Below, in pieces: positions 4,656 through 63,135 of a stretch of 64,000 bases of DNA (position 1 is the stretch's first letter; each line of letters starts with the position of its first letter). Under the pieces are notes generated by a model that was given only the letters and a program-made list of their open reading frames with translations, was not told the DNA's origin and searched no databases. Where the stretch lies: the NCBI GenBank assembly GCA_049302185.1, contig JBAQLV010000010.1:38742-102741 (forward strand). Reading direction: 5' to 3'. This DNA comes from Thermodesulfovibrionales bacterium (GTDB taxonomy: Bacteria > Nitrospirota > Thermodesulfovibrionia > Thermodesulfovibrionales > UBA1546). A program made the position numbers and the translations under genes.

Positions 4656-4783
4656 GGGGATTGGTCCGCAATCCCTCTTCACGCTGTCATGCTGGCTTGT
4701 CCAGCATCCTTCCTGCTTGTCAGGAATCTCAGAATGATTCCGAACAAGTCGGAATGACAAACCCGACAAGCGGGAATGACAGT
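4656..4783. repeat. Mosaic of short hairpin units (family A: GTCATTCC..GGAATGAC, GATGCTGGACAAGCCAGCATGACA)
   Basis: Intergenic. The same modules recur at 43447-43551, 46347-46419, 54731-54806 (inverted order) and 58541-58631. Confidence 0.85.
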
Positions 4784-4881: not shown

Positions 4882-6135
4882 ATGCAAATGCCTTCTTACA
4901 GAAAGCGTATTTTTTGGTTTCTTTCGGCAATAATTCTTTTGGTAATGTTTTTTATCCTCAAAAGAACCTTCAGTTCAGTTGATGTCAAAACAACGCCTGT
5001 AAGTAGGCAGGAACTTGCGATTACAGTAACTGCAACGTCAACAGGGACAATAAAATCAGAAACAGAGGTTAAGATTACAGCGCAGAGAATTGGGAAGATT
5101 ACAAAGCTCTTTGTTGAAGAGGGCAGCATAGTTAAGCCCGGCTCAATGATAGCAGAGCTTGACCCTGAGGAGGCGCATCTGAGCCTTCAGGCTGCGCGGG
5201 CATCGCTTGAAAAGGCTCAATCAAGGCTCAAGGAACTCAGGAATTCTCATGACTCCCTGAAAGTGGAGATAGAAACTAATATTGAAAAAGCAAGGGCGGT
5301 TTTGAAAGAGGCGGAGATGAGATTCAAGAGATTCAATGATTTAAAAGACAAGGGATATATGGCGCAGATGGATGTTGATTCTGTCCAGAAGGAATATGAA
5401 GTGGCAAAGGCAAGCCTTGAGTCTGCCATCGCCGCAAAAAGCCGCATAACCGCACAGACCGAAGAGATAAAGGCGCAGGAGGCTGCTGTCAGAGAGGCGG
5501 AGAGTTCACTTTCGCTTGCAAAGCTTAACTATGATTATTCGTTTATAAAATCTCCGATATCAGGCGTGGTAATATCAAGGCCTGTCAAGGTTGGCGAGAC
5601 AACTGTAACGGGCGCTTTAGCGGGCGCTTTGGTGGCGCATGTTGTCTCTATGGAGGACCTTTATATAGAGGCGTTTATAGATGAGGCTGATGTTGCAAAG
5701 GTTAAACTGAGGCAGCAGGCTAATATCTCAATGGATGCGTATCAGGGGAATATTTTTAAAGGTGAAATTTATCTGATATCGCCTGTTGTCCTTGGCGGCA
5801 AACAGGAAACAAGGACCTTTGAGGTGAGGACACGGCTTAAAGAAAAACAAATCATTATAAAACCGGGGATGTCTGCTGATGTAGAGATTATTGTGGACAA
5901 CATTAAAAATGCGCTTGTGGTTCCATCCCATGCGCTTATGGAGAAAAACGGCAAAAAATTTGTATTTATCAAAAAAGGTTCAACAGCAAAACTTATTCCC
6001 GTTGAAACAGGGCAGTTCAACTGGAATTTTACAGAGATAACATCAGGCGTTAAAGAGGGTGATACAGTGATTATCAACCCGGATGCGACGGGACTTGCTG
6101 ACGGCAGGAGAGTGAAGGAAACGGTGAATAGGTGA
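4882..6135 (+). CDS. Efflux periplasmic adaptor (HlyD/MacA family)
   Basis: 417 aa with an N-terminal TM, a long coiled-coil hairpin and beta-barrel domains. It lies upstream of MacB-like ABC genes. Confidence 0.85.
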   Translation: MQMPSYRKRIFWFLSAIILLVMFFILKRTFSSVDVKTTPVSRQELAITVTATSTGTIKSETEVKITAQRIGKITKLFVEEGSIVKPGSMIAELDPEEAHLSLQAARASLEKAQSRLKELRNSHDSLKVEIETNIEKARAVLKEAEMRFKRFNDLKDKGYMAQMDVDSVQKEYEVAKASLESAIAAKSRITAQTEEIKAQEAAVREAESSLSLAKLNYDYSFIKSPISGVVISRPVKVGETTVTGALAGALVAHVVSMEDLYIEAFIDEADVAKVKLRQQANISMDAYQGNIFKGEIYLISPVVLGGKQETRTFEVRTRLKEKQIIIKPGMSADVEIIVDNIKNALVVPSHALMEKNGKKFVFIKKGSTAKLIPVETGQFNWNFTEITSGVKEGDTVIINPDATGLADGRRVKETVNR

Positions 6136-21864: not shown

Positions 21865-24276
21865 TTATTCTTTAGTCTGGGATGACTGTTTTATTCTTTC
21901 CCTCACTATGTATGCCTGCCCCAGCGATATGCCAGCATCATTTGCAGGAACCTTTTCATTAGTATAAACATTCATTCCTATTGATTTTAGCCTGTCTATA
22001 GTATTTTTTAGAAGATACATGTTCTGAAAAACTCCGCCACTTAAAACTACATCATGCAGCTTATGAACCATGCCGAGCCGCTGGACGACTCCGGCAATAA
22101 TTGTGACTATGGTGTTGTGAAACTTAGTGGCGATAATATCTTTTCCAATGCCTTTCGCCATATCCTGTATCAGCCTGAACAGAGTCAGGCAAAAGTCTAT
22201 TTCAATCCTGTCTTTCAATCCGATGTCAGCAGGGTAGTCTTCCTCTATGTTATCTATTGTATAAGATTCAAGCGCCATTGCTGCCTCGCCTTCAAAGGTG
22301 TTTGTGTCGCATATCCCGAGTATTGCCGAGACCGCATCAAAGAGCCTTCCTGCGCTTGATGAAAGGGGTGAGAAATCTCTGTTGTCAATGATTCTGAGAA
22401 TGCTGTTTATCTTATCACTGCCGTATTTTTCAATGAAGCCTATGGACTCCAGATAGTGCATGACCTCATCTCCCGTGATATATCTTATGTAGCTGACCGC
22501 AACTCTCCACGGCTCTCTGATTGCCGTCTCTCCTCCAGGAAGGGGGATGTATTTAAAGTGTCCTGCCCTCTTAAAGTCATCTATATCGGCAATCAGGAAT
22601 TCACTTCCCCATAGATTCCCGTCAGTTCCGTAGCCTGTGCCGTCAAATGCCACGCCTATGACTTTTCTCTTTATTCCGTTTTCTGCCATGACAGATGCAA
22701 TATGGGCATAATGATGCTGAATGCCATAAAAAGATAGTGACGAGTGACGAGTTTTTTGCTCCTGACTGCTAACTGCTGACTGCTGGGCCAGCGCCCATTT
22801 TGTTGAAAGATAATTGGGATGCAGGTCATATCCAATTGCAACAGGGTTCACCCTGTAAACTTTTTTTAGATTGCTGAGGCTTTCTTCAAAGAATTTTACA
22901 GTCTCGTAATTTTCCATATCTCCTATGTGATGGCTTGGAATAGCATAGCTTCCTTTTGTGAGGGTAAATGTGTTTTTTATATCAGCTCCGCAGCCGAGCA
23001 CTTCGGGACCATCATTGTCCAGAGATATGGGTTCAGGCGCATAGCCCCTTGAACGGCGGATAAAAATAGGTTTTGTCCTGTGAGCTAAAAAATGATTTCT
23101 TATAACAGAATCATCTACACGCATGAAGATGTCCCTGTTATGGATAAGGAGGGCATCAACCATATCGGAGAATTTTGATACTGCCTCGTCATTGCTGACA
23201 ACTATCGGCTCTTCCGAGATGTTGCCGCTGGTCATTACAAGGGATTTGAAATGGGGCATACCATTTACCCCCCCTTCGCCCCCCCTTACCAAGGGGGGGA
23301 TGGGGGGGTGGGGATAATAGAATAACAGATAATGCAGAGGCGTGTATGGGAGCATGAAGCCGATGTGCAGATTATTAGGGCTGATCGAATCAGGCAAGAG
23401 CGCTGAATTGTCTTGCGCAGTTTTTTTCCTGAGGAGCACAATCGGTCTCTTATTGGAGGTCAGGAGTTCTTGCTCTTTCTCCGATACCTCGCAGTATTTT
23501 TTAATTGTTTCTATGTCAGGAGCCATAAGCGCAAAAGGCTTGTTGTTCTTTCTTTTCCTTTCTCTTAATCTTTCAACCGCATCTTTGTTTGCGGCATCGC
23601 ATGCGATATGAAAACCGCCAAGCCCCTTTATTGCAATGATACAGCCGTCTCGTAGAAGTCTTATTGTTTCTTTTATCGGATTTTCTGCCTTATTAACTTT
23701 TAACTTTTCACTTTTAATTTTTAATTCAACATGCGGTCCGCATACCGCACATGCATTAGGCTGGGCATGGAATCTCCTGTCGGAAGTGTTGTTGTATTCG
23801 CTTTCGCATTCATTGCACATTTTAAAAACAGACATGGTGGTGTTGTGTCTATCATAAGGCACAGCATTTGTGATGGTGTATCGCGGCCCGCAGTTGATAC
23901 AGTTTATGAAAGGGTAGAGATAACGCCTGTTGTCTTTGTCAAGCATCTCTTTAAGGCAGTCATCGCATATTGAGACGTCAGAAGATATAAGCGTAAAACT
24001 TCCGCTGTCTCTGCTTTTTACTATCTCAAAATCTTTGTGCCCGTAAAGAGGCATAGGCGAAATATCAATCTTGTTTATCTCTGATAATGGAGGCGCTTCT
24101 TTTGGAAGCCTGCCTATAAATGACGTGATGTCTTCGCCTTCTATGTCAATTGCCACGCCGTCAGAGGTATTGGTCACTGTGCCTTTCAGGTTAAGGGATT
24201 TGGCAAGGTTATAGACAAAGGGCCTGAAGCCGACTCCCTGCACAACGCCTTTGATATTGATGAGGACACGGTTCAT
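21865..24276 (-). CDS. hypF: Carbamoyltransferase HypF
   Basis: 803 aa with an acylphosphatase-like N-domain, four CxxC zinc-finger motifs and YrdC-like and Kae1-like domains. It carries two repeat-derived in-frame insertions. Confidence 0.95.
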   Translation of the reverse strand: MNRVLINIKGVVQGVGFRPFVYNLAKSLNLKGTVTNTSDGVAIDIEGEDITSFIGRLPKEAPPLSEINKIDISPMPLYGHKDFEIVKSRDSGSFTLISSDVSICDDCLKEMLDKDNRRYLYPFINCINCGPRYTITNAVPYDRHNTTMSVFKMCNECESEYNNTSDRRFHAQPNACAVCGPHVELKIKSEKLKVNKAENPIKETIRLLRDGCIIAIKGLGGFHIACDAANKDAVERLRERKRKNNKPFALMAPDIETIKKYCEVSEKEQELLTSNKRPIVLLRKKTAQDNSALLPDSISPNNLHIGFMLPYTPLHYLLFYYPHPPIPPLVRGGEGGVNGMPHFKSLVMTSGNISEEPIVVSNDEAVSKFSDMVDALLIHNRDIFMRVDDSVIRNHFLAHRTKPIFIRRSRGYAPEPISLDNDGPEVLGCGADIKNTFTLTKGSYAIPSHHIGDMENYETVKFFEESLSNLKKVYRVNPVAIGYDLHPNYLSTKWALAQQSAVSSQEQKTRHSSLSFYGIQHHYAHIASVMAENGIKRKVIGVAFDGTGYGTDGNLWGSEFLIADIDDFKRAGHFKYIPLPGGETAIREPWRVAVSYIRYITGDEVMHYLESIGFIEKYGSDKINSILRIIDNRDFSPLSSSAGRLFDAVSAILGICDTNTFEGEAAMALESYTIDNIEEDYPADIGLKDRIEIDFCLTLFRLIQDMAKGIGKDIIATKFHNTIVTIIAGVVQRLGMVHKLHDVVLSGGVFQNMYLLKNTIDRLKSIGMNVYTNEKVPANDAGISLGQAYIVRERIKQSSQTKE
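22736..22786. repeat. Heptamer arrays inside hypF (AGTGACG x2; CTRACTG x3)
   Basis: Read directly. They encode the AVSSQEQKTRHSSLS stretch, which looks like an insertion relative to HypF as I know it. Confidence 0.8.
23268..23313. repeat. GC-rich palindromic mini-element, in frame in hypF
   Basis: cccccccttcgccccccttaccaagggggggatgggggggtgggg. It is the near-exact reverse complement of 45716-45759 and encodes PHPPIPPLVRGGEGG. Confidence 0.9.
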
Positions 24277-31676: not shown

Positions 31677-31984
31677 ATATCCTTATTGCCTCTCCAAACA
31701 ATTTAGTTAATGTCGTGGCTGTTTATTGATCTTTATCAGTTTTTTCGTTATTATTCTCGGTGCCGTTATTTTCTTTAATGCCGTGACCTGCCGTAATTTC
31801 ATTTATATTACATGAATCCCTTGATATATCTGAGAACATCATATGGCACTGGAAAAGCAACGCCGTCTTGAGTTGCCTGCTTAACTATATCGTGCCAGCT
31901 TCCGCCAAAAGTCTTCGCAACGCGCTCTGTCACCTTCACACTATTCGCAATCTCAACTACAACTAGGGGAATAATTAGGGGAAT

Positions 31985-32743
31985 AATTAGGGACACATCC
32001 CATAATTTTCTTTTACTTTTTTTTCTTCCTCGGTCTTCCGGGAGATTTCAGTATAAATCTCCTTTCAAGCTTCTTTTCCATTTTCTTTATGAACTCTTCG
32101 CTGCCCAACGGTCTCCCCGTTCTCGTATGATACCTTATACCGTTTATCTCTTTCTCCGCAATACCTGATTTAATAAGTTTTCTGTAGTCCTTCCTCTGCC
32201 TTGCTTCAAACAATTCCTCTTCCAATATCTCATTCACTATGCCATTTATGTGAGCATTTGCACTTGAATATGTAAAGTCCTCTGCCTTTTTCACTATCCG
32301 TGCTCTTACAGGGTTCTGTTCAATGTATCTTGCCACAGCCCACAAATACTTATCCTTATCTACTATGCAGGAATGATATCTGCTTTCCCATAATCTGCCT
32401 GTCCGTTGGTATTTTCTATTTATATGCTGCGTGTAACACAGCGTTACTCCCTGCATCATCTTATATAAGGATTCTTCACTTTTTGGCCGTGTCAATAGGT
32501 GGATATGGTTGCTCATAAGACAATAGGCAAGGATTGGTGAATCCCATTTGTCTGAATATTTCTTAAGTAATTCCAAATATTTCTTTCTGTCTTCACCTTT
32601 AAAAAAGACCTTTTCTCTGTTATTGCCTCTCTGGACTACATGATGGAAAAAACCCGTTGCAACTGCTCTCGCTATTCTTGGCATGAGAAGATTTTAGATT
32701 ATAGCTGCTCTTTTGTCAAATAATAGGGGATGTGTCCCTAATT
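31985..32743 (-). mobile_element. RAYT/IS200-like unit: Y1 transposase gene bracketed by perfect 17-bp inverted repeats
   Basis: AATTAGGGACACATCCC at 31985-32001 and its exact reverse complement at 32727-32743. Subterminal 12-bp direct repeats lie on both outer flanks. Confidence 0.75.
32013..32684 (-). CDS. REP-associated tyrosine transposase (Y1 / IS200-like family)
   Basis: 223 aa with HHVVQRGNNRE, CLMSNHIHLL (HUH motif) and a conserved Tyr region YIEQNPVRA. Confidence 0.8.
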   Translation of the reverse strand: MPRIARAVATGFFHHVVQRGNNREKVFFKGEDRKKYLELLKKYSDKWDSPILAYCLMSNHIHLLTRPKSEESLYKMMQGVTLCYTQHINRKYQRTGRLWESRYHSCIVDKDKYLWAVARYIEQNPVRARIVKKAEDFTYSSANAHINGIVNEILEEELFEARQRKDYRKLIKSGIAEKEINGIRYHTRTGRPLGSEEFIKKMEKKLERRFILKSPGRPRKKKK

Positions 32744-32972
32744 TTCCAATTTTCCACCTCCCTAATTTTCCATAATTTTCCATTGTCCTAAAATTGTCCC
32801 TAAAATTGTCCCTAAAGCCGGATACAAGCCCAATGACATATGCATTTAGTCCAGCAGTCTCTGATGCAACGGGCTTCGATATATCTGTGATTTGTTTTTT
32901 ACTGTTTTCATCTGCATAGGAAAATATTGTGGTAGAAGACAATAAGAATATAACTGCTATAAAAAGTTTCAT
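32694..32972 (-). CDS. Hypothetical small secreted protein whose 3' half runs into the RAYT flanking repeats
   Basis: Signal-like MKLFIAVIFLLSSTTIFSYA. The C-terminal FRDNFRDNFRTMENYGKLGRWKIGKLG is a translation of the 12-bp repeats. Possibly disrupted. Confidence 0.3.
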   Translation of the reverse strand: MKLFIAVIFLLSSTTIFSYADENSKKQITDISKPVASETAGLNAYVIGLVSGFRDNFRDNFRTMENYGKLGRWKIGKLGTHPLLFDKRAAII

Positions 32973-33047
32973 TCCGTGATTCCCCTTTGCTCTTATCAGT
33001 AAAAAGAGCATATCTTATCGGCTAAAGTTCGATAGCACTTTGTATGT

Positions 33048-41739: not shown

Positions 41740-43343
41740 AAGTTGTTACAGCGGAAGAGATGAGAGAGATTGACAGGATGACCATAAGGGATTATGAAAT
41801 AGCCGGTAGTGTGCTCATGGAGAGGGCAGGGCTTGCCGTTGCAGGAAAAATAAGGGAACTTTTTGAGCGGCGGAGAAAGGTTATAGTTCTTTCGGGTGGA
41901 GGCAATAATGGCGGAGACGGCATTGTTGTTGTAAGAAATCTTCATGAATGGGGCTGGAATGTAAAAATCATTCTTCTTTCAAAGGAAAACAAGCTAAGCC
42001 CGGACTGTCTGTTGCAATATAAGATAGCGAAAAAATCAGGCGTGCCGGTTGAGTTTCGGGATTATATCACAGAAAAAGACCTTCATAGCGCTTTGGTTGT
42101 AGATGCAATTTTCGGCACCGGTTTAAGCAAAAATATCACAGGAAAGACGGCCGAGATTATATCGTTTATCAATGCCTCGGATGCTCCTGTAATTTCTGTT
42201 GACATTCCCTCAGGCATTTCATCAGATACAGGGCAGATTATGGGAGAGGCGGTCAGGGCGGATTATACCATAGCGTTCGGTATTCCCAAGAGAGGTCATC
42301 TGCTTTACCCGGGCGCTGATTATACCGGAAGGCTTTTTATTGAAGATATCGGCTTTCCTGAAGAACTGCTTCACTCGGAAAAGCTTAAAGCAGAGCTTCT
42401 TGAAAAAAGAGACATATTTTTATTGATTCCCGAAAGGCAGAGGTATTCGCATAAAGGCGATTATGGCCATGTGCTTGTTATTGCAGGCTCAAGAGGGAAA
42501 ACAGGCGCTGCATTCATGTGTGCAAAGGCATGTCTAAGGTCAGGCGCAGGGCTTGTGACAATAGGAGTTCCGGAATCACTGCTGGATGTTTTTCAGTCAA
42601 GGGTTACAGAAGAGATGACCCTGCCTTTGCCTGACAAAGGAGACGGGACGCTTTCATCAAAGGCATTGGAAAAGATTCTGGAATTTCTTTCTGAAAAGGC
42701 TGATGTGCTTGCAATTGGTCCGGGAATTTCCGTTACCGATGATACTAAGAAGCTTGTCAGAGAACTTTTACTGAATTCAACAGCGTCGGCTGTTATTGAT
42801 GCTGATGCTATAAATTCGCTTCAGGGCAATAAGCAGATACTCAAAAAAGCGAGGTCGCCGCTGATTCTTACGCCTCATCCAGGAGAGATGGCGAGACTCT
42901 TACAGAAGTCACCCCCCCCACCCATCCCTCCCCCTCGAGGGGGGAGGGTGAGGGAGGGGGTGAAAGCTCTAACTTCTGAACTCCAAACCAAAATAGAGCA
43001 GGACAGGATTAATACTGCCATGTTTTTTGCAAAAGAGACAGGGACATATCTTGTTCTTAAAGGCGTGCCGACAGTTATTGCTGAACCGGAAGGCAGAGTG
43101 TTCATCAATCCGACAGGCAATTCCGGTATGGCGAGCGCCGGAACAGGGGATGTCCTGACAGGAATGGTTTCAGGGTTTTTAGGGCAGGGGTTAAACCCGC
43201 TTGAGGCGTCAATTCTTGGAGTTTATATGCATGGACTTGCCGGAGACATAGCTGCGAAAAGCAAGGGAGAACATTCGCTGATTGCATCCGATATTACAGA
43301 TGCGATTCCGGAGGCGTTTCATCTATTGAGGATTATTTCATAA
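41736..43343 (+). CDS. nnr: Bifunctional NAD(P)H-hydrate repair enzyme (epimerase/dehydratase)
   Basis: 535 aa with a YjeF_N domain (GGGNNGGDG) and a carbohydrate-kinase-like C domain (GTGDVLTG). It carries an in-frame GC-palindrome insertion. Confidence 0.92.
   Translation: MKVVTAEEMREIDRMTIRDYEIAGSVLMERAGLAVAGKIRELFERRRKVIVLSGGGNNGGDGIVVVRNLHEWGWNVKIILLSKENKLSPDCLLQYKIAKKSGVPVEFRDYITEKDLHSALVVDAIFGTGLSKNITGKTAEIISFINASDAPVISVDIPSGISSDTGQIMGEAVRADYTIAFGIPKRGHLLYPGADYTGRLFIEDIGFPEELLHSEKLKAELLEKRDIFLLIPERQRYSHKGDYGHVLVIAGSRGKTGAAFMCAKACLRSGAGLVTIGVPESLLDVFQSRVTEEMTLPLPDKGDGTLSSKALEKILEFLSEKADVLAIGPGISVTDDTKKLVRELLLNSTASAVIDADAINSLQGNKQILKKARSPLILTPHPGEMARLLQKSPPPPIPPPRGGRVREGVKALTSELQTKIEQDRINTAMFFAKETGTYLVLKGVPTVIAEPEGRVFINPTGNSGMASAGTGDVLTGMVSGFLGQGLNPLEASILGVYMHGLAGDIAAKSKGEHSLIASDITDAIPEAFHLLRIIS
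42910..42962. repeat. GC-rich palindromic mini-element, in frame in nnr
   Basis: cacccccccacccatccctccccctcgaggggggagggtgagggagggggtg, centred on CTCGAG. It encodes SPPPPIPPPRGGRVREG. Confidence 0.9.
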
Positions 43344-45600: not shown

Positions 45601-46323
45601 ATGACAAATATTGCAGAAGACATAAAGACAGTGCTTGAGTTTTATCAGGCGATGGGGATTGAGAGAATACCCTTAAACATAGCGCTGAAGAGCAGAAGCG
45701 CAGAAGTGCAGAAGCCACCCCCCCATCCCCCCCTTGGTAAGGGGGGGCGAAGGGGGGGTGATTATTCGGAAAAGGTTATTGCTTTAAAAAAATTGCGCGA
45801 TGAGATTGGTGATTGTCAGAGGTGCAAACTCTCAAAGGGGAGAAAGAACATTGTATTCGGGGAAGGCAGCATAGATGCGGAAATAATGTTCATTGGCGAA
45901 GGGCCCGGCGAAGACGAGGACATTCAGGGGCGGCCTTTTGTGGGCAAGGCAGGACAGCTGCTTACAAAACTGATAGAGAAGATGGGATTTAAGAGGGAGG
46001 ATGTCTATATCGGCAATATCGTGAAGTGCCGGCCTCCCGGTAACAGGGACCCTGAGGAAGACGAGATTAACGCCTGTTCTCCGTTCATAAAAAAACAGGC
46101 GGCGATAATCTCTCCGAAGGTTATAGTTTCGCTTGGCCGCATATCTACGCAGACGCTCATCGGCATGAAGATTCCGATAGGCAAGCTGAGGGGCAAATTC
46201 TATCAGTTTGAAGATATTCCGCTGATGCCGACATTTCATCCGTCTTATCTCCTGAGAAACCCCAAAGACAAATGGCTTGTATGGGAAGATGCGCAAAAGG
46301 TTCTTGAAAGGCTGGGAAAGTAG
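45601..46323 (+). CDS. Uracil-DNA glycosylase, family 4
   Basis: 240 aa with CQRC..., GEGPGEDED and HPSYLLRN. It carries an in-frame GC palindrome in the N-terminal extension. Confidence 0.9.
   Translation: MTNIAEDIKTVLEFYQAMGIERIPLNIALKSRSAEVQKPPPHPPLGKGGRRGGDYSEKVIALKKLRDEIGDCQRCKLSKGRKNIVFGEGSIDAEIMFIGEGPGEDEDIQGRPFVGKAGQLLTKLIEKMGFKREDVYIGNIVKCRPPGNRDPEEDEINACSPFIKKQAAIISPKVIVSLGRISTQTLIGMKIPIGKLRGKFYQFEDIPLMPTFHPSYLLRNPKDKWLVWEDAQKVLERLGK
45716..45759. repeat. GC-rich palindromic mini-element, in frame in the UDG gene
   Basis: cacccccccatcccccccttggtaagggggggcgaagggggggtg. It encodes PPPHPPLGKGGRRGG. Confidence 0.9.
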
Positions 46324-51928: not shown

Positions 51929-53077
51929 ATAGGCATTATCCTTCTTAATCTCGGCGGGCCTGATTCTATTCAGGCTGTAAAGCCGTTTCTTTACAATTTA
52001 TTTTCAGACAGAAAGATAATTCAACTTGGCCCTCCATTCCTTCAAAAACCGATTGCACGGCTAATCTCAACACTGAGGTCTAAAAAAACAGAAAGTTGTT
52101 ACCGCCTCATAGGAGGCAGGTCTCCGATACTTGATATTACCAATGCACAGGCAAAGGCGCTGGAAGAAACGCTAAATCAGTTCAGCGTTCAGGGTTCAGC
52201 GTCAGAAAACTCCGAACTCCTAACTCCTAACTCCGAGAAATCCCCCCATCCCCCCTTTGTTAAAGGGGGGCGAGGGGGGATTAAAGTTTTCGTAGGAATG
52301 CGTTACTGGCATCCTTTGATAGAAGACGTGATACCTCAGATTTATAATGATGGAATTAGAAAACTTATCGCCATCAGCCTTTATCCCCAGTATTCTCTGG
52401 CAACATCAGGCTCAGCGCTTGTTAAATTTAAAGAAGCTGTAATAAATACTTATCAGCCGGATAAAACAGAGGTTGAAAAAATGAATAGTTCTTTTGAGTA
52501 TCATGGCAAGCCTTCTTTTACTGTTCACTATTCACTATTCACTATTCACTGTATTTTATCATGGTATGACCATCCGCTTTATATTAAGGCATTGGTGGAT
52601 GTGATAAAGAAGGGGATTGAATCTTTTAACTCCAAACTCCAAACTCCAAACTCTGAACTTAATATCCACGTTCTCTTCAGCGCCCACAGCCTTCCTGAAA
52701 AGTTTATTGATGAGGGTGACCCTTATGTGCGTCATATTGAGAGAACGATTGAAGAGATTGTAAAGCGGATACCAATAAAATGGCATCTGAGTTATCAATC
52801 CAAGAGCGGGCCTGTAAAATGGCTTGGGCCTTCAACAGACGAAAAACTTAAAGAACTTGCAGGCAGGAATGTTAAGAATATTCTCATTGTCCCGATAAGT
52901 TTTGTATCTGACCATATTGAGACGCTTTATGAGATTGATATATTATATATGCAGATGGCAAAAGACCTCGGAATTAATCTGAGACGAACAGATTCCCTGA
53001 ACACACATCCGCTTTTTATTGAAGCGCTGAAAGATATAGTAATAAAAAACATGAAGGAGCTTGGTTGGACAGAATAG
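51929..53077 (+). CDS. hemH: Ferrochelatase (start codon unresolved)
   Basis: The conserved N-terminus GIILLNLGGPDS...FLYNLFSD...IGGRSP is in frame from at least 51932. There is no ATG/GTG/TTG in frame after the stop at 51866-51868. The track start at 52298 would delete about 120 conserved residues. SAHSLPE and DHIETLYE motifs are present. Confidence 0.85.
   Translation: MGIILLNLGGPDSIQAVKPFLYNLFSDRKIIQLGPPFLQKPIARLISTLRSKKTESCYRLIGGRSPILDITNAQAKALEETLNQFSVQGSASENSELLTPNSEKSPHPPFVKGGRGGIKVFVGMRYWHPLIEDVIPQIYNDGIRKLIAISLYPQYSLATSGSALVKFKEAVINTYQPDKTEVEKMNSSFEYHGKPSFTVHYSLFTIHCILSWYDHPLYIKALVDVIKKGIESFNSKLQTPNSELNIHVLFSAHSLPEKFIDEGDPYVRHIERTIEEIVKRIPIKWHLSYQSKSGPVKWLGPSTDEKLKELAGRNVKNILIVPISFVSDHIETLYEIDILYMQMAKDLGINLRRTDSLNTHPLFIEALKDIVIKNMKELGWTE
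52178..52282. repeat. Composite in-frame insertion in hemH: GTTCAG-type heptamers, inverted AACTCCN heptamers, then a GC-rich palindrome (52241-52281)
   Basis: Read directly. It encodes SVQGSASENSELLTPNSEKSPHPPFVKGGRGG just upstream of the conserved VGMRYWHP. Confidence 0.9.
52521..52555. repeat. Heptamer array CTGTTCA CTATTCA x3 CTGTATT inside hemH
   Basis: It encodes FTVHYSLFTIHCI. The same CTATTCA unit appears at 38686-38699. Confidence 0.9.
52628..52660. repeat. Heptamer array AACTCCA x3 AACTCTG AACTT inside hemH
   Basis: It encodes NSKLQTPNSEL just before the conserved LFSAHSLPE. Confidence 0.9.
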
Positions 53078-54688: not shown

Positions 54689-54730
54689 ACCTGAATTGAG
54701 CGATTCTATACTCTGTAATTCTGTCTTGTC

Positions 54731-54806
54731 TGTCATTCCGACTTGTTCGGAATCCTTCCTGCTTGTCAGGAATCGTCAGAAAGATGCTGGACAAGCCAGC
54801 ATGACA
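54731..54806. repeat. Family A hairpin mosaic, inverted relative to 4684-4765
   Basis: tgtcattccgacttgttcggaatc + cttcctgcttgtcaggaatc + gatgctggacaagccagcatgaca, the same three modules as the 4.7-kb copy. Confidence 0.85.
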
Positions 54807-54865
54807 AAAAAGGGTGAGGGGTATTTTCGGGTCAATGACAGGAATAAGAAAGGGGTTTTGTTTTC

Positions 54866-58540: not shown

Positions 58541-58631
58541 GTCATTCCCGCGTGTCGGGAATCTTTCTTTCCCGCACTCAGGCGTGTTCGCTGTGGCAAC
58601 AAAGAAAGATGCTGGACAAGCCAGCATGACA
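58541..58631. repeat. Family A hairpin units
   Basis: gtcattcccgcgtgtcgggaatc ... gatgctggacaagccagcatgaca, upstream of ilvB. Confidence 0.8.
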
Positions 58632-58737
58632 GACAGGGGAGGGGTAAGATATAAATAAAAACATCAGGTTAATGCAAGAATTTATGGACATTTTCATAAT
58701 CTTTTGTGGTAAAATTATTTAAATTTTAAAAGGAGCT

Positions 58738-61680: not shown

Positions 61681-61712
61681 TAATTTATAAAAGTGAAGGG
61701 AGGGTGAAAAAA

Positions 61713-62108
61713 ATGAAAATCCGGTTTATGAAACAGATTTCGTGGTATCTTGTCTTTGCAATGTTTATCATCGGGATTGCGCCTAAGGCTGATGCGGGCA
61801 TTGCGCCGTCAGAAATCATTGTCATGTCACAGGTTGACAGGACGGCTGACCTTGGAAAAATCCAGAAGGTTCTTGAGATGAAGATGGTCAGGGAAAGGCT
61901 TGAAAAACTGGGATACGCACAGGAAGAGATTAACAGCAGGCTTGCCCATCTCAGTGACCAGCAGATGCACAATCTGGCGCTCCAGATAGATGGGATTAAG
62001 GTTGGAGGCGATAGTGGTCTCGGTATAGTGATAGCTCTTCTTGTGATAGCCATACTTTTTGTGCTGTTGCTTTGGCTTATGGATCACAAAGTAGTAGTGA
62101 CAAAATAA
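61713..62108 (+). CDS. Small signal-peptide, tail-anchored protein with a juxtamembrane Gly-Gly (paralog 1)
   Basis: I place the start at ATG 61713 (MKIRFMKQISW, homologous to the paralog-2 start, with good RBS spacing). Features are APKADA|G, KVGGD, a hydrophobic helix and HKVVVTK. Confidence 0.7.
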   Translation: MKIRFMKQISWYLVFAMFIIGIAPKADAGIAPSEIIVMSQVDRTADLGKIQKVLEMKMVRERLEKLGYAQEEINSRLAHLSDQQMHNLALQIDGIKVGGDSGLGIVIALLVIAILFVLLLWLMDHKVVVTK

Positions 62109-62129
62109 AATTAAAGGAGGTGAATTAAA

Positions 62130-62519
62130 ATGAGGATACCTTTAATGAAACATTTGTCGTGGTACTTGATAGTTGCAATGTTCATCATCGGGATTGCACC
62201 GAAGGCTGATGCGGGCATTGCGCCGTCTGAAATCATTGTCATGTCACAGGTTGACAGGACGGCTGACCTTGGAAAAATCCAGAAGGTTCTTGAAATGAAA
62301 ATGGTCAGAGAGAGGCTGGAGAAGTTAGGATTTGCTCAGGATGAAATACAGGGCAAGTTAGGCAGTCTCAGTGACCAGCAGATGCACAATCTGGCGCTCC
62401 AGATAGACGATATGAAGGTTGGAGGCGATCTCGGTATAGTGATAGCTCTTCTTGTGATAGCCATACTTGTTGTGCTGTTTATACAGCTTACAGGTCACAG
62501 AGTAGTAGTAACGAAATAG
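62130..62519 (+). CDS. Small signal-peptide, tail-anchored protein with a juxtamembrane Gly-Gly (paralog 2)
   Basis: 129 aa with RBS AAAGGAGGTG and the same architecture as paralog 1. Confidence 0.7.
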   Translation: MRIPLMKHLSWYLIVAMFIIGIAPKADAGIAPSEIIVMSQVDRTADLGKIQKVLEMKMVRERLEKLGFAQDEIQGKLGSLSDQQMHNLALQIDDMKVGGDLGIVIALLVIAILVVLFIQLTGHRVVVTK

Positions 62520-62520
62520 A

Positions 62521-63135
62521 ATGAGGCTAAAATTTCAGTCTGTAAACCCCGTTAGAAAATGGATTTCTAACGGGATAAATAAGCAGGCATGGATTATCTC
62601 CATGCCTGCTTATTTATTTCTTGCTCTTCTCACATTTTTCTTGCATTCATGCGCTGTTGTCAGCAATGGCAATATTCCTGAATCAAGACAAAACAGGATT
62701 GTCAGCAATGTTCCTTTCTACGCTCAAGAGGATTATCAGTGCGGGCCTGCATCTCTTGCAGGCGTTATGAATTACTGGAAGATAGATGTTACGCCTGATG
62801 ATATTGCAAAAGAAATATACAGCAAATCTGCGAAAGGCACCCTGAATATTGATATGGTAATTTATCCTCAGAAGAAGGGATTAACTGCAGAACAATATTC
62901 AGGGAATATGAGAGACCTGAAAAAAAATATAGATTCAGGTTATCCGCTTATTGTGCTTGTTGATTATGGTTTCTGGGCATTGCAGTCAAATCATTTCATG
63001 GTTGTTGTCGGGTATAATGAGGATGGAGTGATTGTAAATTCGGGAAAGGATAAGGGCAAGTTCATATCTGAAGAGGATTTTATAAAGACATGGGAAAAGA
63101 CAAAGTTCTGGACGCTGGTAATAAAAAGAAAGTGA
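62521..63135 (+). CDS. C39-like papain-fold cysteine peptidase, probable lipoprotein
   Basis: Catalytic-type QCGPASL and NHFMVVVGY, lipobox FLHSC. The start is ambiguous (62521, coupled to the upstream stop, or 62602). Confidence 0.72.
   Translation: MRLKFQSVNPVRKWISNGINKQAWIISMPAYLFLALLTFFLHSCAVVSNGNIPESRQNRIVSNVPFYAQEDYQCGPASLAGVMNYWKIDVTPDDIAKEIYSKSAKGTLNIDMVIYPQKKGLTAEQYSGNMRDLKKNIDSGYPLIVLVDYGFWALQSNHFMVVVGYNEDGVIVNSGKDKGKFISEEDFIKTWEKTKFWTLVIKRK
62548..62615 (+). promoter_or_regulatory. Two consecutive strong hairpins at the small-protein/peptidase junction
   Basis: An 11-bp stem at 62548-62574 (a copy of the 16530 hairpin). A 16-bp perfect stem at 62577-62592 / 62600-62615, followed by a T-rich tract. 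The internal ATG at 62602 lies in the 3' arm. Confidence 0.6.

Follow-up and report, generated by a model that had tools for sequence, protein, structure and literature searches.

A 759-bp unit with terminal inverted repeats and a Y1/HUH transposase in a Thermodesulfovibrionales bacterium, very probably a TIRtron

A stretch of 64,000 nucleotides from a Thermodesulfovibrionales bacterium (hereafter the window; positions count from its first letter) carries a 759-bp unit that is very probably an autonomous, single-gene, insertion sequence (IS)-like TIRtron. It has terminal inverted repeats (TIRs) of 17-25 nt with the core TAGGGACACATCCC, and its gene encodes a TIRYT, a Y1/HUH transposase probably of TnpAY1 subclass 2.1 (RAYT group 1) (Table 1). 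The TIRtron/TIRYT class, named for TIR-associated tyrosine transposases, was described by Di Nocera et al. 2013 (PMC3733652); length and sequence signatures set its proteins apart from RAYTs. It is a known but little studied class, and the window element is an ordinary further member of it with some useful details. Among Y1 HUH transposases other than IS200, TIRYT/subclass 2.1/RAYT group 1 is the largest branch. For this branch, comparative evidence from the locus and its relatives points to a moving unit that runs from TIR to TIR, a TIR core that depends on the clade, a promoter inside the 5′ end, and ends that generate local tandem duplications.

Table 1. Features of the element and its flanks, in window positions
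Feature	Position	Strand	Details
Whole putative mobile unit, TIR to TIR	31985..32743	-	759 bp; bounded by copy-to-copy homology limits
TIRYT gene, 223-aa Y1/HUH transposase	32013..32684	-	Pfam Y1_Tnp, E 1.8e-19
Sigma-70-like promoter	32691..32719	-	TTGACA - 17 nt - TAAAAT; 11/12 consensus matches
5′ (promoter-side) TIR	32727..32743	-	Exact reverse complement of the 3′ TIR; conserved 14-nt core TAGGGACACATCCC on minus strand 32740..32727
3′ TIR	31985..32001	+	AATTAGGGACACATCCC; core TAGGGACACATCCC on plus strand 31988-32001, 11 nt past the stop codon
3′-side outer tandem array	31960..31992	.	TAGGGGAATAAT plus duplicated CAACTA
5′-side outer tandem arrays	32735..32816	.	Partial TIR-terminus copies: GGAAAATTA-type units and TAGGGACAATTT x ~3
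Flank, outside element: 249-bp fragment of a 127-aa hypothetical-protein gene	31711..31959	-	95.6% nucleotide identity to locus L142
Flank, outside element: 92-aa ORF P0121	32697..32972	-	Signal-peptide-like N-terminus, then through arrays and TIR

The transposase carries the HUH motif H60-I61-H62, the catalytic Y120 within YIEQNP, the pair S140-S141 and two C-terminal GRP motifs, and these motif residues are invariant in an alignment of 41 homologs. Its AlphaFold2 model (pLDDT 93.6) shows three helices and a basic tail in the C-terminal extension. Among PDB folds this model is closest to E. coli TnpA(REP) (4ER8, E 2.6e-8); the TnpA proteins of IS608, ISDra2 and IS200 come next, at E values of about 1e-4 to 1e-5. 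A single-sequence search of the PDB returned no match at E up to 1, and the C-terminal tail (residues 128-223) has no Pfam match at E up to 10, whether HTH or Bac_DnaA_C. With the proteins in Additional file 5 of PMC3733652 as BLASTP references, the closest published TIRYT is pca 3049 of Pelobacter carbinolicus, 49.6% identical over residues 1-221 (E 2e-73). It is followed by gsu 2396 (41.5%) and 12 further TIRYTs that align over their full length at 29-42%. The RAYTs eco b228, pfs 3939 and sml 2816 align over only about 90 residues of the catalytic core, and identity to E. coli TnpA(REP) is 21.7% over 92 residues. Comparison with RAYT groups and with IS200/IS605 TnpA, a check proposed in the initial annotation of this DNA, thus identifies the protein as a TIRYT and as neither a true RAYT nor an IS200 transposase. 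Relatives are abundant, with about 35,800 protein clusters (50% identity) matching at E up to 1e-3.

Perfect 17-bp inverted repeats around a 223-aa Y1/HUH gene had been described in that annotation, and both repeats and the intact ORF are present as it stated. The inverted repeat reaches 25 nt at 88% complementarity (31985-32009 against 32719-32743). When up to three mismatches are allowed, the 17-mer matches only twice in the window, at the two positions that flank the gene (shuffled sequences gave a mean of 0.21 matches, and two or more in 0 of 100 shuffles). This agrees with the earlier observation that no other repeat in the window matches it. A search of the window for a second Y1 gene that would explain its other hairpin repeat families found none. 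The core is identical in all homologs of at least 54% protein identity that have a clear bracketing repeat, with the qualification that loci L022-L141 were fetched by the 14-mer itself, which makes core conservation there circular and leaves an estimated thousands of chance 14-mer matches. In the P0117 lineage both ends are altered in concert, one end reading TTCGGGACA... and the opposite end ...TGTCCCGAA. Searching the literature for the core sequence turned up nothing but unrelated primers.

Each TIR comprises TTAG and a 4-bp stem, with no stable hairpin on a GT[AG]G foot. We rejected a REP-like hairpin as a defining feature of the single TIR: the stem is so short, shuffles equal two of the four single-end folds in stability (z is about -2.9 for the remaining two), and other clades do not retain the palindrome. 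Since the mini-hairpin in the core is weak and is not kept across clades, the data do not support recognition of a hairpin in the manner of IS608 or REPs. Between the 5′ TIR and the gene, the -10 box ends 6 nt from the ATG, so the transposase mRNA is probably leaderless. Homologs repeat this layout (TTGACA, a spacer of about 17 nt, a TAgAAT-like box and 5-6 nt to the ATG), and TIR, spacing and promoter are alike in homologs from unrelated contexts.

Five unrelated contexts contain copies of at least 90% protein identity, whose nucleotide homology ends either at the TIRs or no more than about 30 nt away from them. Projected onto the window, these limits are 32743-32771 for one end and 31971-31986 for the opposite end. 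One metagenome-assembled genome (MAG) holds two 759-nt copies at 99.5% identity (L029 and L070). L011, a copy in another context, shares 98.8% identity with the window unit, whose ORF, both TIRs and promoter are intact. These comparisons indicate that the moving unit is the segment from TIR to TIR and that it is able to duplicate within one genome. The window itself has a single copy, as most genomes with a homolog also seem to have, so this particular copy may be inactive. Its flanks, in the hisH-folK interval, are a patchwork and a search for a clean empty site found none; insertion at this site may or may not have been precise. Carriage by viruses or phages was considered and dropped, as the 29 matches of the 14-mer on viral contigs are all isolated, chance-like singles and phage records gave one weak partial protein match. 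Plasmid carriage was likewise set aside: plasmid relatives are all below 40% identity and labelled "transposase".

An independent sample of 60 loci, drawn by protein similarity alone, shows how general this architecture is. TIRs bracket the gene in 52 of the 60 and mostly begin (G)GGGAC[AG][CG], and their inner end mostly lies about 33-42 nt from the ATG. The core varies by protein clade, and a repeat with GGG[AT][CG]A[CG] was detected at 42 loci. Inverted TIR doublets without a gene exist in other genomes, where they fold at -25 kcal/mol (z -10); such doublets, and solo copies with the extended consensus, are spread over several phyla.

These properties correspond closely to what the searched parts of PMC3733652 give for TIRtrons. 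The shared arrangement is a single Y1/HUH gene between TIRs that are not GTAG REPs. The published motif, GGGGWSAS at a short and constant spacing from the gene, is matched at 7 of 8 positions by AGGGACAC in the window and appears as GGGGACAC in relatives L092, L156 and L161. There, as among the relatives studied here, TIRs also occur without a gene as singles, dimers and clusters in some genomes. The searched text and supplements of that paper make no mention of Nitrospirota or Thermodesulfovibrionales hosts or of the core TAGGGACACATCCC, and the same searched parts do not include the junction duplications, the promoter and leaderless layout, the clade-wise change of the TIR core or the copy boundaries.

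Features in common with subclass 2.1 (PMC6006769), equivalent to RAYT group 1 (PMC5581495), are the general motif set (NHxH, W[EQ], YIExNP and SS), a size of about 220-240 aa that includes a long C-terminal tail, the lack of canonical REPs, low copy number with occasional near-identical duplicates, and a wide, patchy taxonomic spread. The published motifs are NH[V/Y/F]H, W[EQ], YIELNP or Y[IV]HLNP, and an SS pair early in the tail, and the proteins have a median of about 238 aa (PMC6006769, PMC5581495). The window protein, with NHIH, WE, YIEQNP, S140-S141 and 223 aa, is close to this set and not an exact match: the middle residue of its HUH motif is I rather than V, Y or F, and its tyrosine motif is YIEQNP rather than YIELNP. 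NHIH and YI-Q-NP also resemble subclass 2.6, while length, tail and TIR type fit 2.1. Within subclass 2.1, the tail of subgroup 2.1.2 is HTH-like (Bac_DnaA_C, HTH_23 or HTH_28) and that of 2.1.1 is another conserved extension (PMC6006769, PMC5581495); the tail of the window protein shows no similarity of the 2.1.2 kind. Quentin et al. 2018 (PMC6006769), the most recent phylogenomic survey, describe the non-IS200 subclasses as lacking typical insertion-sequence features. Against that statement stand the TIR-bracketed majority of the 60 relatives and a unit that is demonstrably mobile by comparison of its copies.

Short tandem arrays adjoin both ends of the element. The initial annotation had noted these arrays, and Tandem Repeats Finder confirms them, but they are not subterminal as described there: they lie on the flank side of the TIRs, outside the unit conserved between copies. 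On the 3′ side, TAGGGGAATAAT (12 nt) is repeated 2.4 times at 31964-31992, and the last unit is the TIR terminus, which corrects the earlier account in that the innermost unit of the left array is the TIR itself. CAACTA is doubled next to it, with the native copy at 31954-31959 and the extra copy at 31960-31965. The intact gene at L142 has a single TAGTTG, and the duplication therefore arose with or after insertion. On the 5′ side, ATTGTCCCTAAA (12 nt) is repeated 3.0 times at 32782-32816, and units of 8, 10 and 24 nt lie inside 32735-32783. The near-identical copy L011 has other arrays in the same position, GTGGGACA x3 and ATTGAAA x2. Junction tandem duplications were found at 10 of 44 ends in a first set of loci (4.8% of controls, p 4e-5) and at 19 of 94 ends in a second (1.3% of control positions, p 1e-17). 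Compared with randomly placed positions of these loci, TIR ends are enriched 5- to 15-fold, in both identity groups tested, so whatever makes the duplications is tied to the element ends. Such junction duplications across the TIRYT family appear to be undescribed so far.

Other readings of the locus have to be weighed against the TIRtron. The gene could belong to a domesticated REP/REPIN system, in which a single-copy, vertically inherited RAYT serves palindromes throughout the genome and the gene-flanking repeats are local members of that population (a "REPtron"). TnpA(REP) is the closest solved structure, and the E. coli system shares inverted cognate repeats around its gene and gene-less inverted doublets with long hairpins, which the doublets and solo TIRs in several phyla recall. 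Further, the NCBIfam RAYT model NF047646 gives 74.3 bits, narrowly short of the required 80, and the apparent single-copy state of most homologs would fit. We nevertheless regard a domesticated system as improbable. The window holds no extra TIR copy even with mismatches and no GT[AG]G-footed stable hairpin, both of them differences from the E. coli TnpA(REP) system. Near-identical genes in five contexts and the 99.5% pair within one MAG are a poor fit to vertical single-copy inheritance, as the gene here changes context. The match to true RAYTs is confined to the catalytic core, no REPs have been reported for subclass 2.1, and the flanking 16-mers of group 1 occur only about 12 times (PMC6006769, PMC5581495). 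The label "RAYT-type" in the initial annotation is thus apt for the nearest structure, but not for a protein that falls below the RAYT cut-off, meets RAYTs in the core alone and matches TIRYTs along its full length. An ordinary IS200/IS605 element (TnpA subclass 1.1), moving by single-strand "peel and paste" with subterminal hairpins on one strand, would share the Y1_Tnp domain, the HUH fold seen in the matches to IS608, ISDra2 and IS200 TnpA, the compactness and, presumably, a single-strand nick-and-join chemistry. It is a very remote prospect and is refuted for practical purposes. NF033573, the NCBIfam IS200 model, gives 25.2 bits where 55 are needed, the tyrosine motif is of class 2, Y---NP rather than Y---Q (PMC6006769), and the protein has 223 aa with a tail of about 100 residues where IS200 TnpA has about 150 aa. 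The ends are inverted repeats instead of same-strand subterminal hairpins, and tnpB is absent. The earlier alternative of a self-contained "IS200-like" unit accordingly survives in its first half, since homology ends near the TIRs and the window has no other copy, but neither the ends nor the protein are IS200-like.

It could also be that the local copy is an immobile relic, with outer arrays produced by plain replication slippage in AT-rich DNA, unrelated to the transposase. Rearranged flanks, including the 249-bp gene fragment that lacks synteny on either side, and the single copy in the window are compatible with this, and arrays that differ between 98.8%-identical copies are what slippage would give. 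Yet an intact ORF, TIRs and promoter, so little diverged from a copy elsewhere, speak against a relic, as do duplications concentrated at TIR ends in both identity groups. We therefore consider a relic with unrelated arrays very unlikely.

How a TIRtron might move can be sketched, although we found no biochemical study of any TIRYT in the literature, and we infer the chemistry, the cleaved strand and the intermediate of its transposition. Transcription would start from the sigma-70-type promoter between the 5′ TIR and the ATG, and the position of the TIR directly upstream of the -35 box would make autoregulation possible. The enzyme, acting through H60/H62 and Y120, would recognise the GGGAC(A/G)-type TIR sequence, and its C-terminal tail, which is helical and basic and carries two GRP motifs, would probably make extra contacts in the AT-rich TIR borders. 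Single-stranded DNA would be nicked at the outer TIR edge, or a few bases from it at most, via a 5′-phosphotyrosine link, and the ends then rejoined, such that the segment is moved or copied. Because the ends are inverted and place the recognition sequence on opposite strands, cleavage of opposite strands would be expected, unlike in IS608. Tandem duplications of TIR terminus and flank might then be side products, formed when the ends are cut and rejoined repeatedly or when synthesis restarts there.

We speculate that TIRYTs may constitute an active, very widespread IS family that uses opposite-strand HUH cleavage, a mode that would differ from IS200/IS605 "peel and paste" as well as from REP processing; this broader proposal is tentative, and we would rate it as rather unlikely. 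If it were true, the family-wide duplications would be the footprint of the mechanism, left by slipped termination or re-initiation of end-primed synthesis or by repeated cleaving and rejoining, and the adjoining 249-bp gene fragment could be flank DNA carried along by imprecise end recognition. The locus supplies defined DNA substrates (the 14-nt core and AT-rich borders) and a measurable by-product for work on inverted-repeat HUH enzymes.

The flanking ORFs bear on whether the element interrupted a gene. It had been suggested that the insertion split a small secreted-protein gene, an idea that the flanks contradict: the left ORF is the end of an unrelated 127-aa gene, and the N-terminus of the right ORF is not related to that family. 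In silico excision, the check proposed for this suggestion, was run and restored nothing. The 249-bp fragment consists of the last 50 codons (31811-31960), residues 78-127 of the conserved 127-aa family, together with downstream sequence, and its synteny with L142 stops at both ends. The 64-kb window lacks the other 77 codons altogether. When the flanking ORFs were joined as one candidate gene, only the C-terminal half found the family and the 5′ part was again absent from the window. Other truncated copies of the 127-aa gene were examined as shared insertion sites and rejected, as the shorter matches are alternative starts that cross the breakpoint. The N-terminus of the right ORF scores -1.0 against the family profile, a value equalled or bettered by 219 of 450 scored shuffles. 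Mechanically listed at 32694-33011, this ORF is annotated in a 92-aa version as P0121, which has no homolog but itself and is probably not a real full-length gene. For annotation more generally, ORFs that run into TIRs or their arrays are likely artefacts, and "REP-associated" or "IS200-like" are imprecise labels for TIRYT genes.

The 759-bp unit is a Nitrospirota member of the TIRtron class (probably subclass 2.1, RAYT group 1), in which terminal inverted repeats (TIRs) flank a Y1/HUH transposase gene (TIRYT), and it behaves as a compact insertion sequence. To this known but poorly studied class, we make modest additions: TIR-to-TIR mobility, a clade-linked TIR core in a large independent sample, a built-in promoter, and family-wide junction duplications.

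Even when up to 3 mismatches are allowed, the 17-mer forming the element's ends has only two matches in the whole window, one at each end. Dinucleotide-preserving shuffles yield a mean of 0.21 matches, and 0/100 give two. Pairing of the TIRs extends to 25 nt (88% complementary). Because these statistics are joined by an intact ORF with a Pfam Y1_Tnp match (E 1.8e-19) and by arrays detected with Tandem Repeats Finder, the arrangement of TIRs, gene and arrays is real and far beyond chance. The initial annotation was therefore right about the exact inverted repeats, their confinement to these two sites in the window, and the 223-aa HUH/Y1 transposase. The arrays it described are also present, but they are all external to the TIRs rather than subterminal.

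Features of the element and its surroundings in window coordinates
Feature	Position	Strand	Description
TIR, 3′	31985-32001		AATTAGGGACACATCCC
TIR, 5′	32727-32743		exact reverse complement of AATTAGGGACACATCCC
Transposase ORF	32013-32684	-	223 aa
Promoter	32719..32691	-	TTGACA - 17 nt - TAAAAT; promoter scan, 11/12 consensus matches
Array, 3′ side	31964-31992		12-nt unit x 2.4; Tandem Repeats Finder
Arrays, 5′ side	32735-32783		8-, 10- and 24-nt units; Tandem Repeats Finder
Array, 5′ side	32782-32816		12-nt unit x 3.0; Tandem Repeats Finder
Left ORF	31808-31996		C-terminal residues (78-127) of a conserved hypothetical protein, 127 aa
Fragment homologous to L142	31711-31959		249 bp, 95.6%
Right ORF (P0121)	32697-32972		92 aa
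8-nt breakpoint match	~32816-32823		TCCGGCTT
Palindromic family	23267-23311, 42913-42960, 45715-45759, 52242-52285		G/C-rich, ~45 nt, e.g. ACCCCCCCTTCGCCCCCCCTTACCAAGGGGGGGATGGGGGGGTGG
Paired hairpins	4673-4772, 54722-54819, 58594-58644		type TGTCATGCTGGCTTGTCCAGCATC
Tandem duplication	61690-62522		~411-417 nt; 300 nt at 83% + 94 nt at 86% identity

Classification of the transposase against RAYT (REP-associated) and IS200/IS605 proteins, as the initial annotation had proposed, returned neither. The protein lies between the two families in NCBIfam, scoring 74.3 bits against a cut-off of 80 for the RAYT model and 25.2 against 55 for IS200. A PDB search by sequence alone found no match. An AlphaFold2 model (pLDDT 93.6; alignment of 41 diverse homologs) most closely matches the structure of E. 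coli TnpA(REP) in complex with a REP hairpin (4ER8, E 2.6e-8, TM 0.76 on target), and next the IS608, ISDra2 and IS200 transposases. In BLASTP comparisons with reference sequences from Additional file 5 of PMC3733652, the transposase aligns end to end with TIRYTs (49.6% to pca 3049 over residues 1-221, E 2e-73; 41.5% to gsu 2396; 29-42% to twelve others), whereas true RAYTs (E. coli b228, P. fluorescens 3939) align over only ~90 core residues. This difference, by which membership is judged, assigns the protein by sequence to the TIRYTs. The original "RAYT-type" label thus holds for the nearest structure, but a canonical REP/RAYT system is rejected on the model score and the core-only alignment, and an IS200 identity on its low score.

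Conservation among the 41 homologs is complete or almost complete at, among others, H60 and H62 of the HUH motif, W99, Y120-x-E-x-N-P and S140-S141. This is close to the combination named for TnpAY1 subclass 2.1 (NHxH, W[EQ], YIExNP, SS tail, ~238 aa; Quentin et al., PMC6006769), with two motifs each one residue off the description. Pfam finds no HTH match in the C-terminal tail. The equivalent of subclass 2.1 in Bertels et al. is RAYT group 1 (PMC5581495; PMC6006769), and Quentin et al. consider the subclass a probable counterpart of the TIRYTs described by Di Nocera et al. (PMC6006769; PMC3733652), whose genes are bordered by TIRs sharing GGGGWSAS and not by REPs (PMC3733652).

Of the alternatives first raised, a RAYT serving distant repeats or a self-contained IS200-like unit, self-containment stands and the IS200 part falls. 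The 20 proteins clustering at >=90% identity, among them the annotated window protein MFZ3122126.1 (Thermodesulfovibrionales MAG), span at least five contexts: the window and L011, L146/L148, L151 and L154 (L-numbers denote loci from other genomes or metagenomes). Nucleotide homology of these copies to the window runs no further than 32743-32771 at one end and 31971-31986 at the other, limits that coincide with the TIRs or lie within ~30 nt of them, and two loci in one MAG (L029, L070) have exactly 759 nt in common at 99.5% identity. With such limits, differing contexts and duplicate copies, the element reads as a self-contained, insertion-sequence-like unit.

Homologs found through protein alone occupy unrelated contexts: L001 lies between alcohol dehydrogenase genes, L005 has an RHS-associated ORF on one side and type II secretion pseudopilin genes on the other, and L012-L021 adjoin Trm112. 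Their common 5′ layout is ...TAGGGACACATCCC, n-TATTTC-TTGACA, ~17 nt, a TAgAAT-like box, 5-6 nt and ATG; at the 3′ end the stop codon is followed after 1-11 nt by GGGATGTGTCCCTA... The P0117 lineage carries a matching change at both ends (TTCGGGACA... and ...TGTCCCGAA), so both ends evolve together. The predicted window promoter, whose geometry is repeated in homologs, stops 6 nt before the ATG with no Shine-Dalgarno sequence between. We infer that the transposase mRNA would be leaderless and that transposase bound to the adjoining TIR may regulate its own gene. At L005 (6677-6720) the 3′ TIR provides the start codon and first codons of the downstream pseudopilin gene (MGCVPNKNKGFTLLEV). In L012-L017, of the P0117 lineage, the downstream neighbour Trm112 is constant. 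Upstream, some contigs have an AAA_15/DUF4276 gene pair whereas another has unrelated ORFs, so the element borders a variable region.

A scan of 596 Gb of genomes with the conserved 14-nt TIR core found at least 120 loci. By our estimate a 14-mer should occur there by chance a few thousand times, so isolated matches in GC-rich genomes are noise, and core conservation within a set so retrieved is circular. Among the matches listed, inverted TIR pairs spaced ~730-750 nt enclose a homolog, in one case (L100) of only 46% protein identity. The same matches include inverted doublets that lack a gene, with 4-50 nt between the copies, in Omnitrophota, Planctomycetota, Atribacterota, Clostridia and others, and many solo copies that follow one extended consensus, aaaTAGGGACACATCCCatttt. 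The predicted fold of a doublet reaches -25 kcal/mol (z -10), against no more than a weak 4-bp stem for a single TIR. Three gene-less copies or doublets lie 6-19 nt downstream of tRNA-Pro, tRNA-Thr and tRNA-Ser genes (L035 159-172, L089 5774-5805, L107 1690-1703).

An independent sample comprised 80 metagenome loci fetched by protein similarity, 60 with sufficient flank; 52 of these 60 have bracketing inverted repeats. The core is GGGACACATCCC in 6/6 loci of >=54% identity whose bracketing repeat is clear (two more loci at this level differ), GGGACACTTCCC at ~46-56%, and GGGACAGTCACC, GGGACAGCGCC, GGGGACGCAACCC or GGGGACACCATAC at lower identity than the GGGACACTTCCC group. The TIR core tracks protein clade. 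Like the TIRs described by Di Nocera et al. (PMC3733652), nearly all sampled repeats start with a GGGGWSAS-type motif, and 33-42 nt separate their ends from the ATG. Since the TIR mini-palindrome is not kept across clades, recognition by sequence is more likely than recognition of a hairpin. A 24-kb Pseudomonas aeruginosa plasmid (NZ_CP116719.1) has a distant homolog (36.7% identity) matching at three places, possibly a relative carried in several copies on a mobile replicon.

The element was initially thought to have split a small secreted-protein gene. The left ORF is indeed the end of a 127-aa family, and an intact gene exists at L142, on a contig from another sample. Nucleotide homology to L142 is confined to the gene's 3′ end and downstream sequence, ends exactly at the array, and is without synteny on either side; the shared stretch looks like a translocated fragment adjoining the element. 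The gene's first 77 codons are absent from the window, and P0121 has no homolog except itself and is not a diverged N-terminus of the family. A split gene is thereby ruled out, and excision restores no ORF. An identical in-frame 8 nt abuts both breakpoints: in the window it borders the 5′-side arrays on their outer side, and in the intact gene (L142 ~5222-5232) it directly precedes the breakpoint, with unrelated sequences beyond. Coincidence is unlikely (~1e-4 to 1e-3, our estimate); the 8 nt could have been left over from the original target, mark a rearrangement mediated by microhomology, or have travelled with the element as flank.

Near-identical copies differ in their arrays at the same position: GTGGGACA x3 and ATTGAAA x2 in L011, an 18-nt partial-TIR duplication (5′ side) and a 30-nt unit with the whole TIR, x2 (3′ side), in L148, CAGATAAATAGGGACA-type units in L151, and CTAATTATGTACT x2 in L154. 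Units consist of the outermost TIR bases plus site-specific flank. TAGTTG occurs twice at the window's 3′ junction and once in the uninterrupted L142 gene, so at least that duplication arose with or after insertion. Scored with a simple detector against random positions in the same loci, junction-proximal tandem duplications occur at 10/44 unique ends in the first set (control 4.8%, p 4e-5) and 19/94 in the independent set (control 1.3%, p 1e-17). The latter comprise 4/16 ends at >=54% identity and 15/78 below, 13 on the 5′ and 6 on the 3′ side, an asymmetry not significant by rough estimate. Contigs often break or carry N runs exactly at TIRs or arrays (L018-L021 start there; L146 and L147 have an N run after the 3′ TIR), which fits real, variable repeats with length heterogeneity within populations. 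In the published accounts consulted we found no description of such duplications; we favour the view that they are left behind when the ends are repeatedly cut and rejoined, or when synthesis restarts there.

The window holds other repeats. The ACCCCCCCTTCGCCCCCCCTTACCAAGGGGGGGATGGGGGGGTGG family, two of whose copies are 100% complementary to each other, bears no relation to the TIR. It appears to be a distinct family of REP- or MITE-like repeats, and the window contains no Y1 gene to go with it. A second dispersed hairpin family occupies three sites, and a tandem duplication lies near the window's right end.
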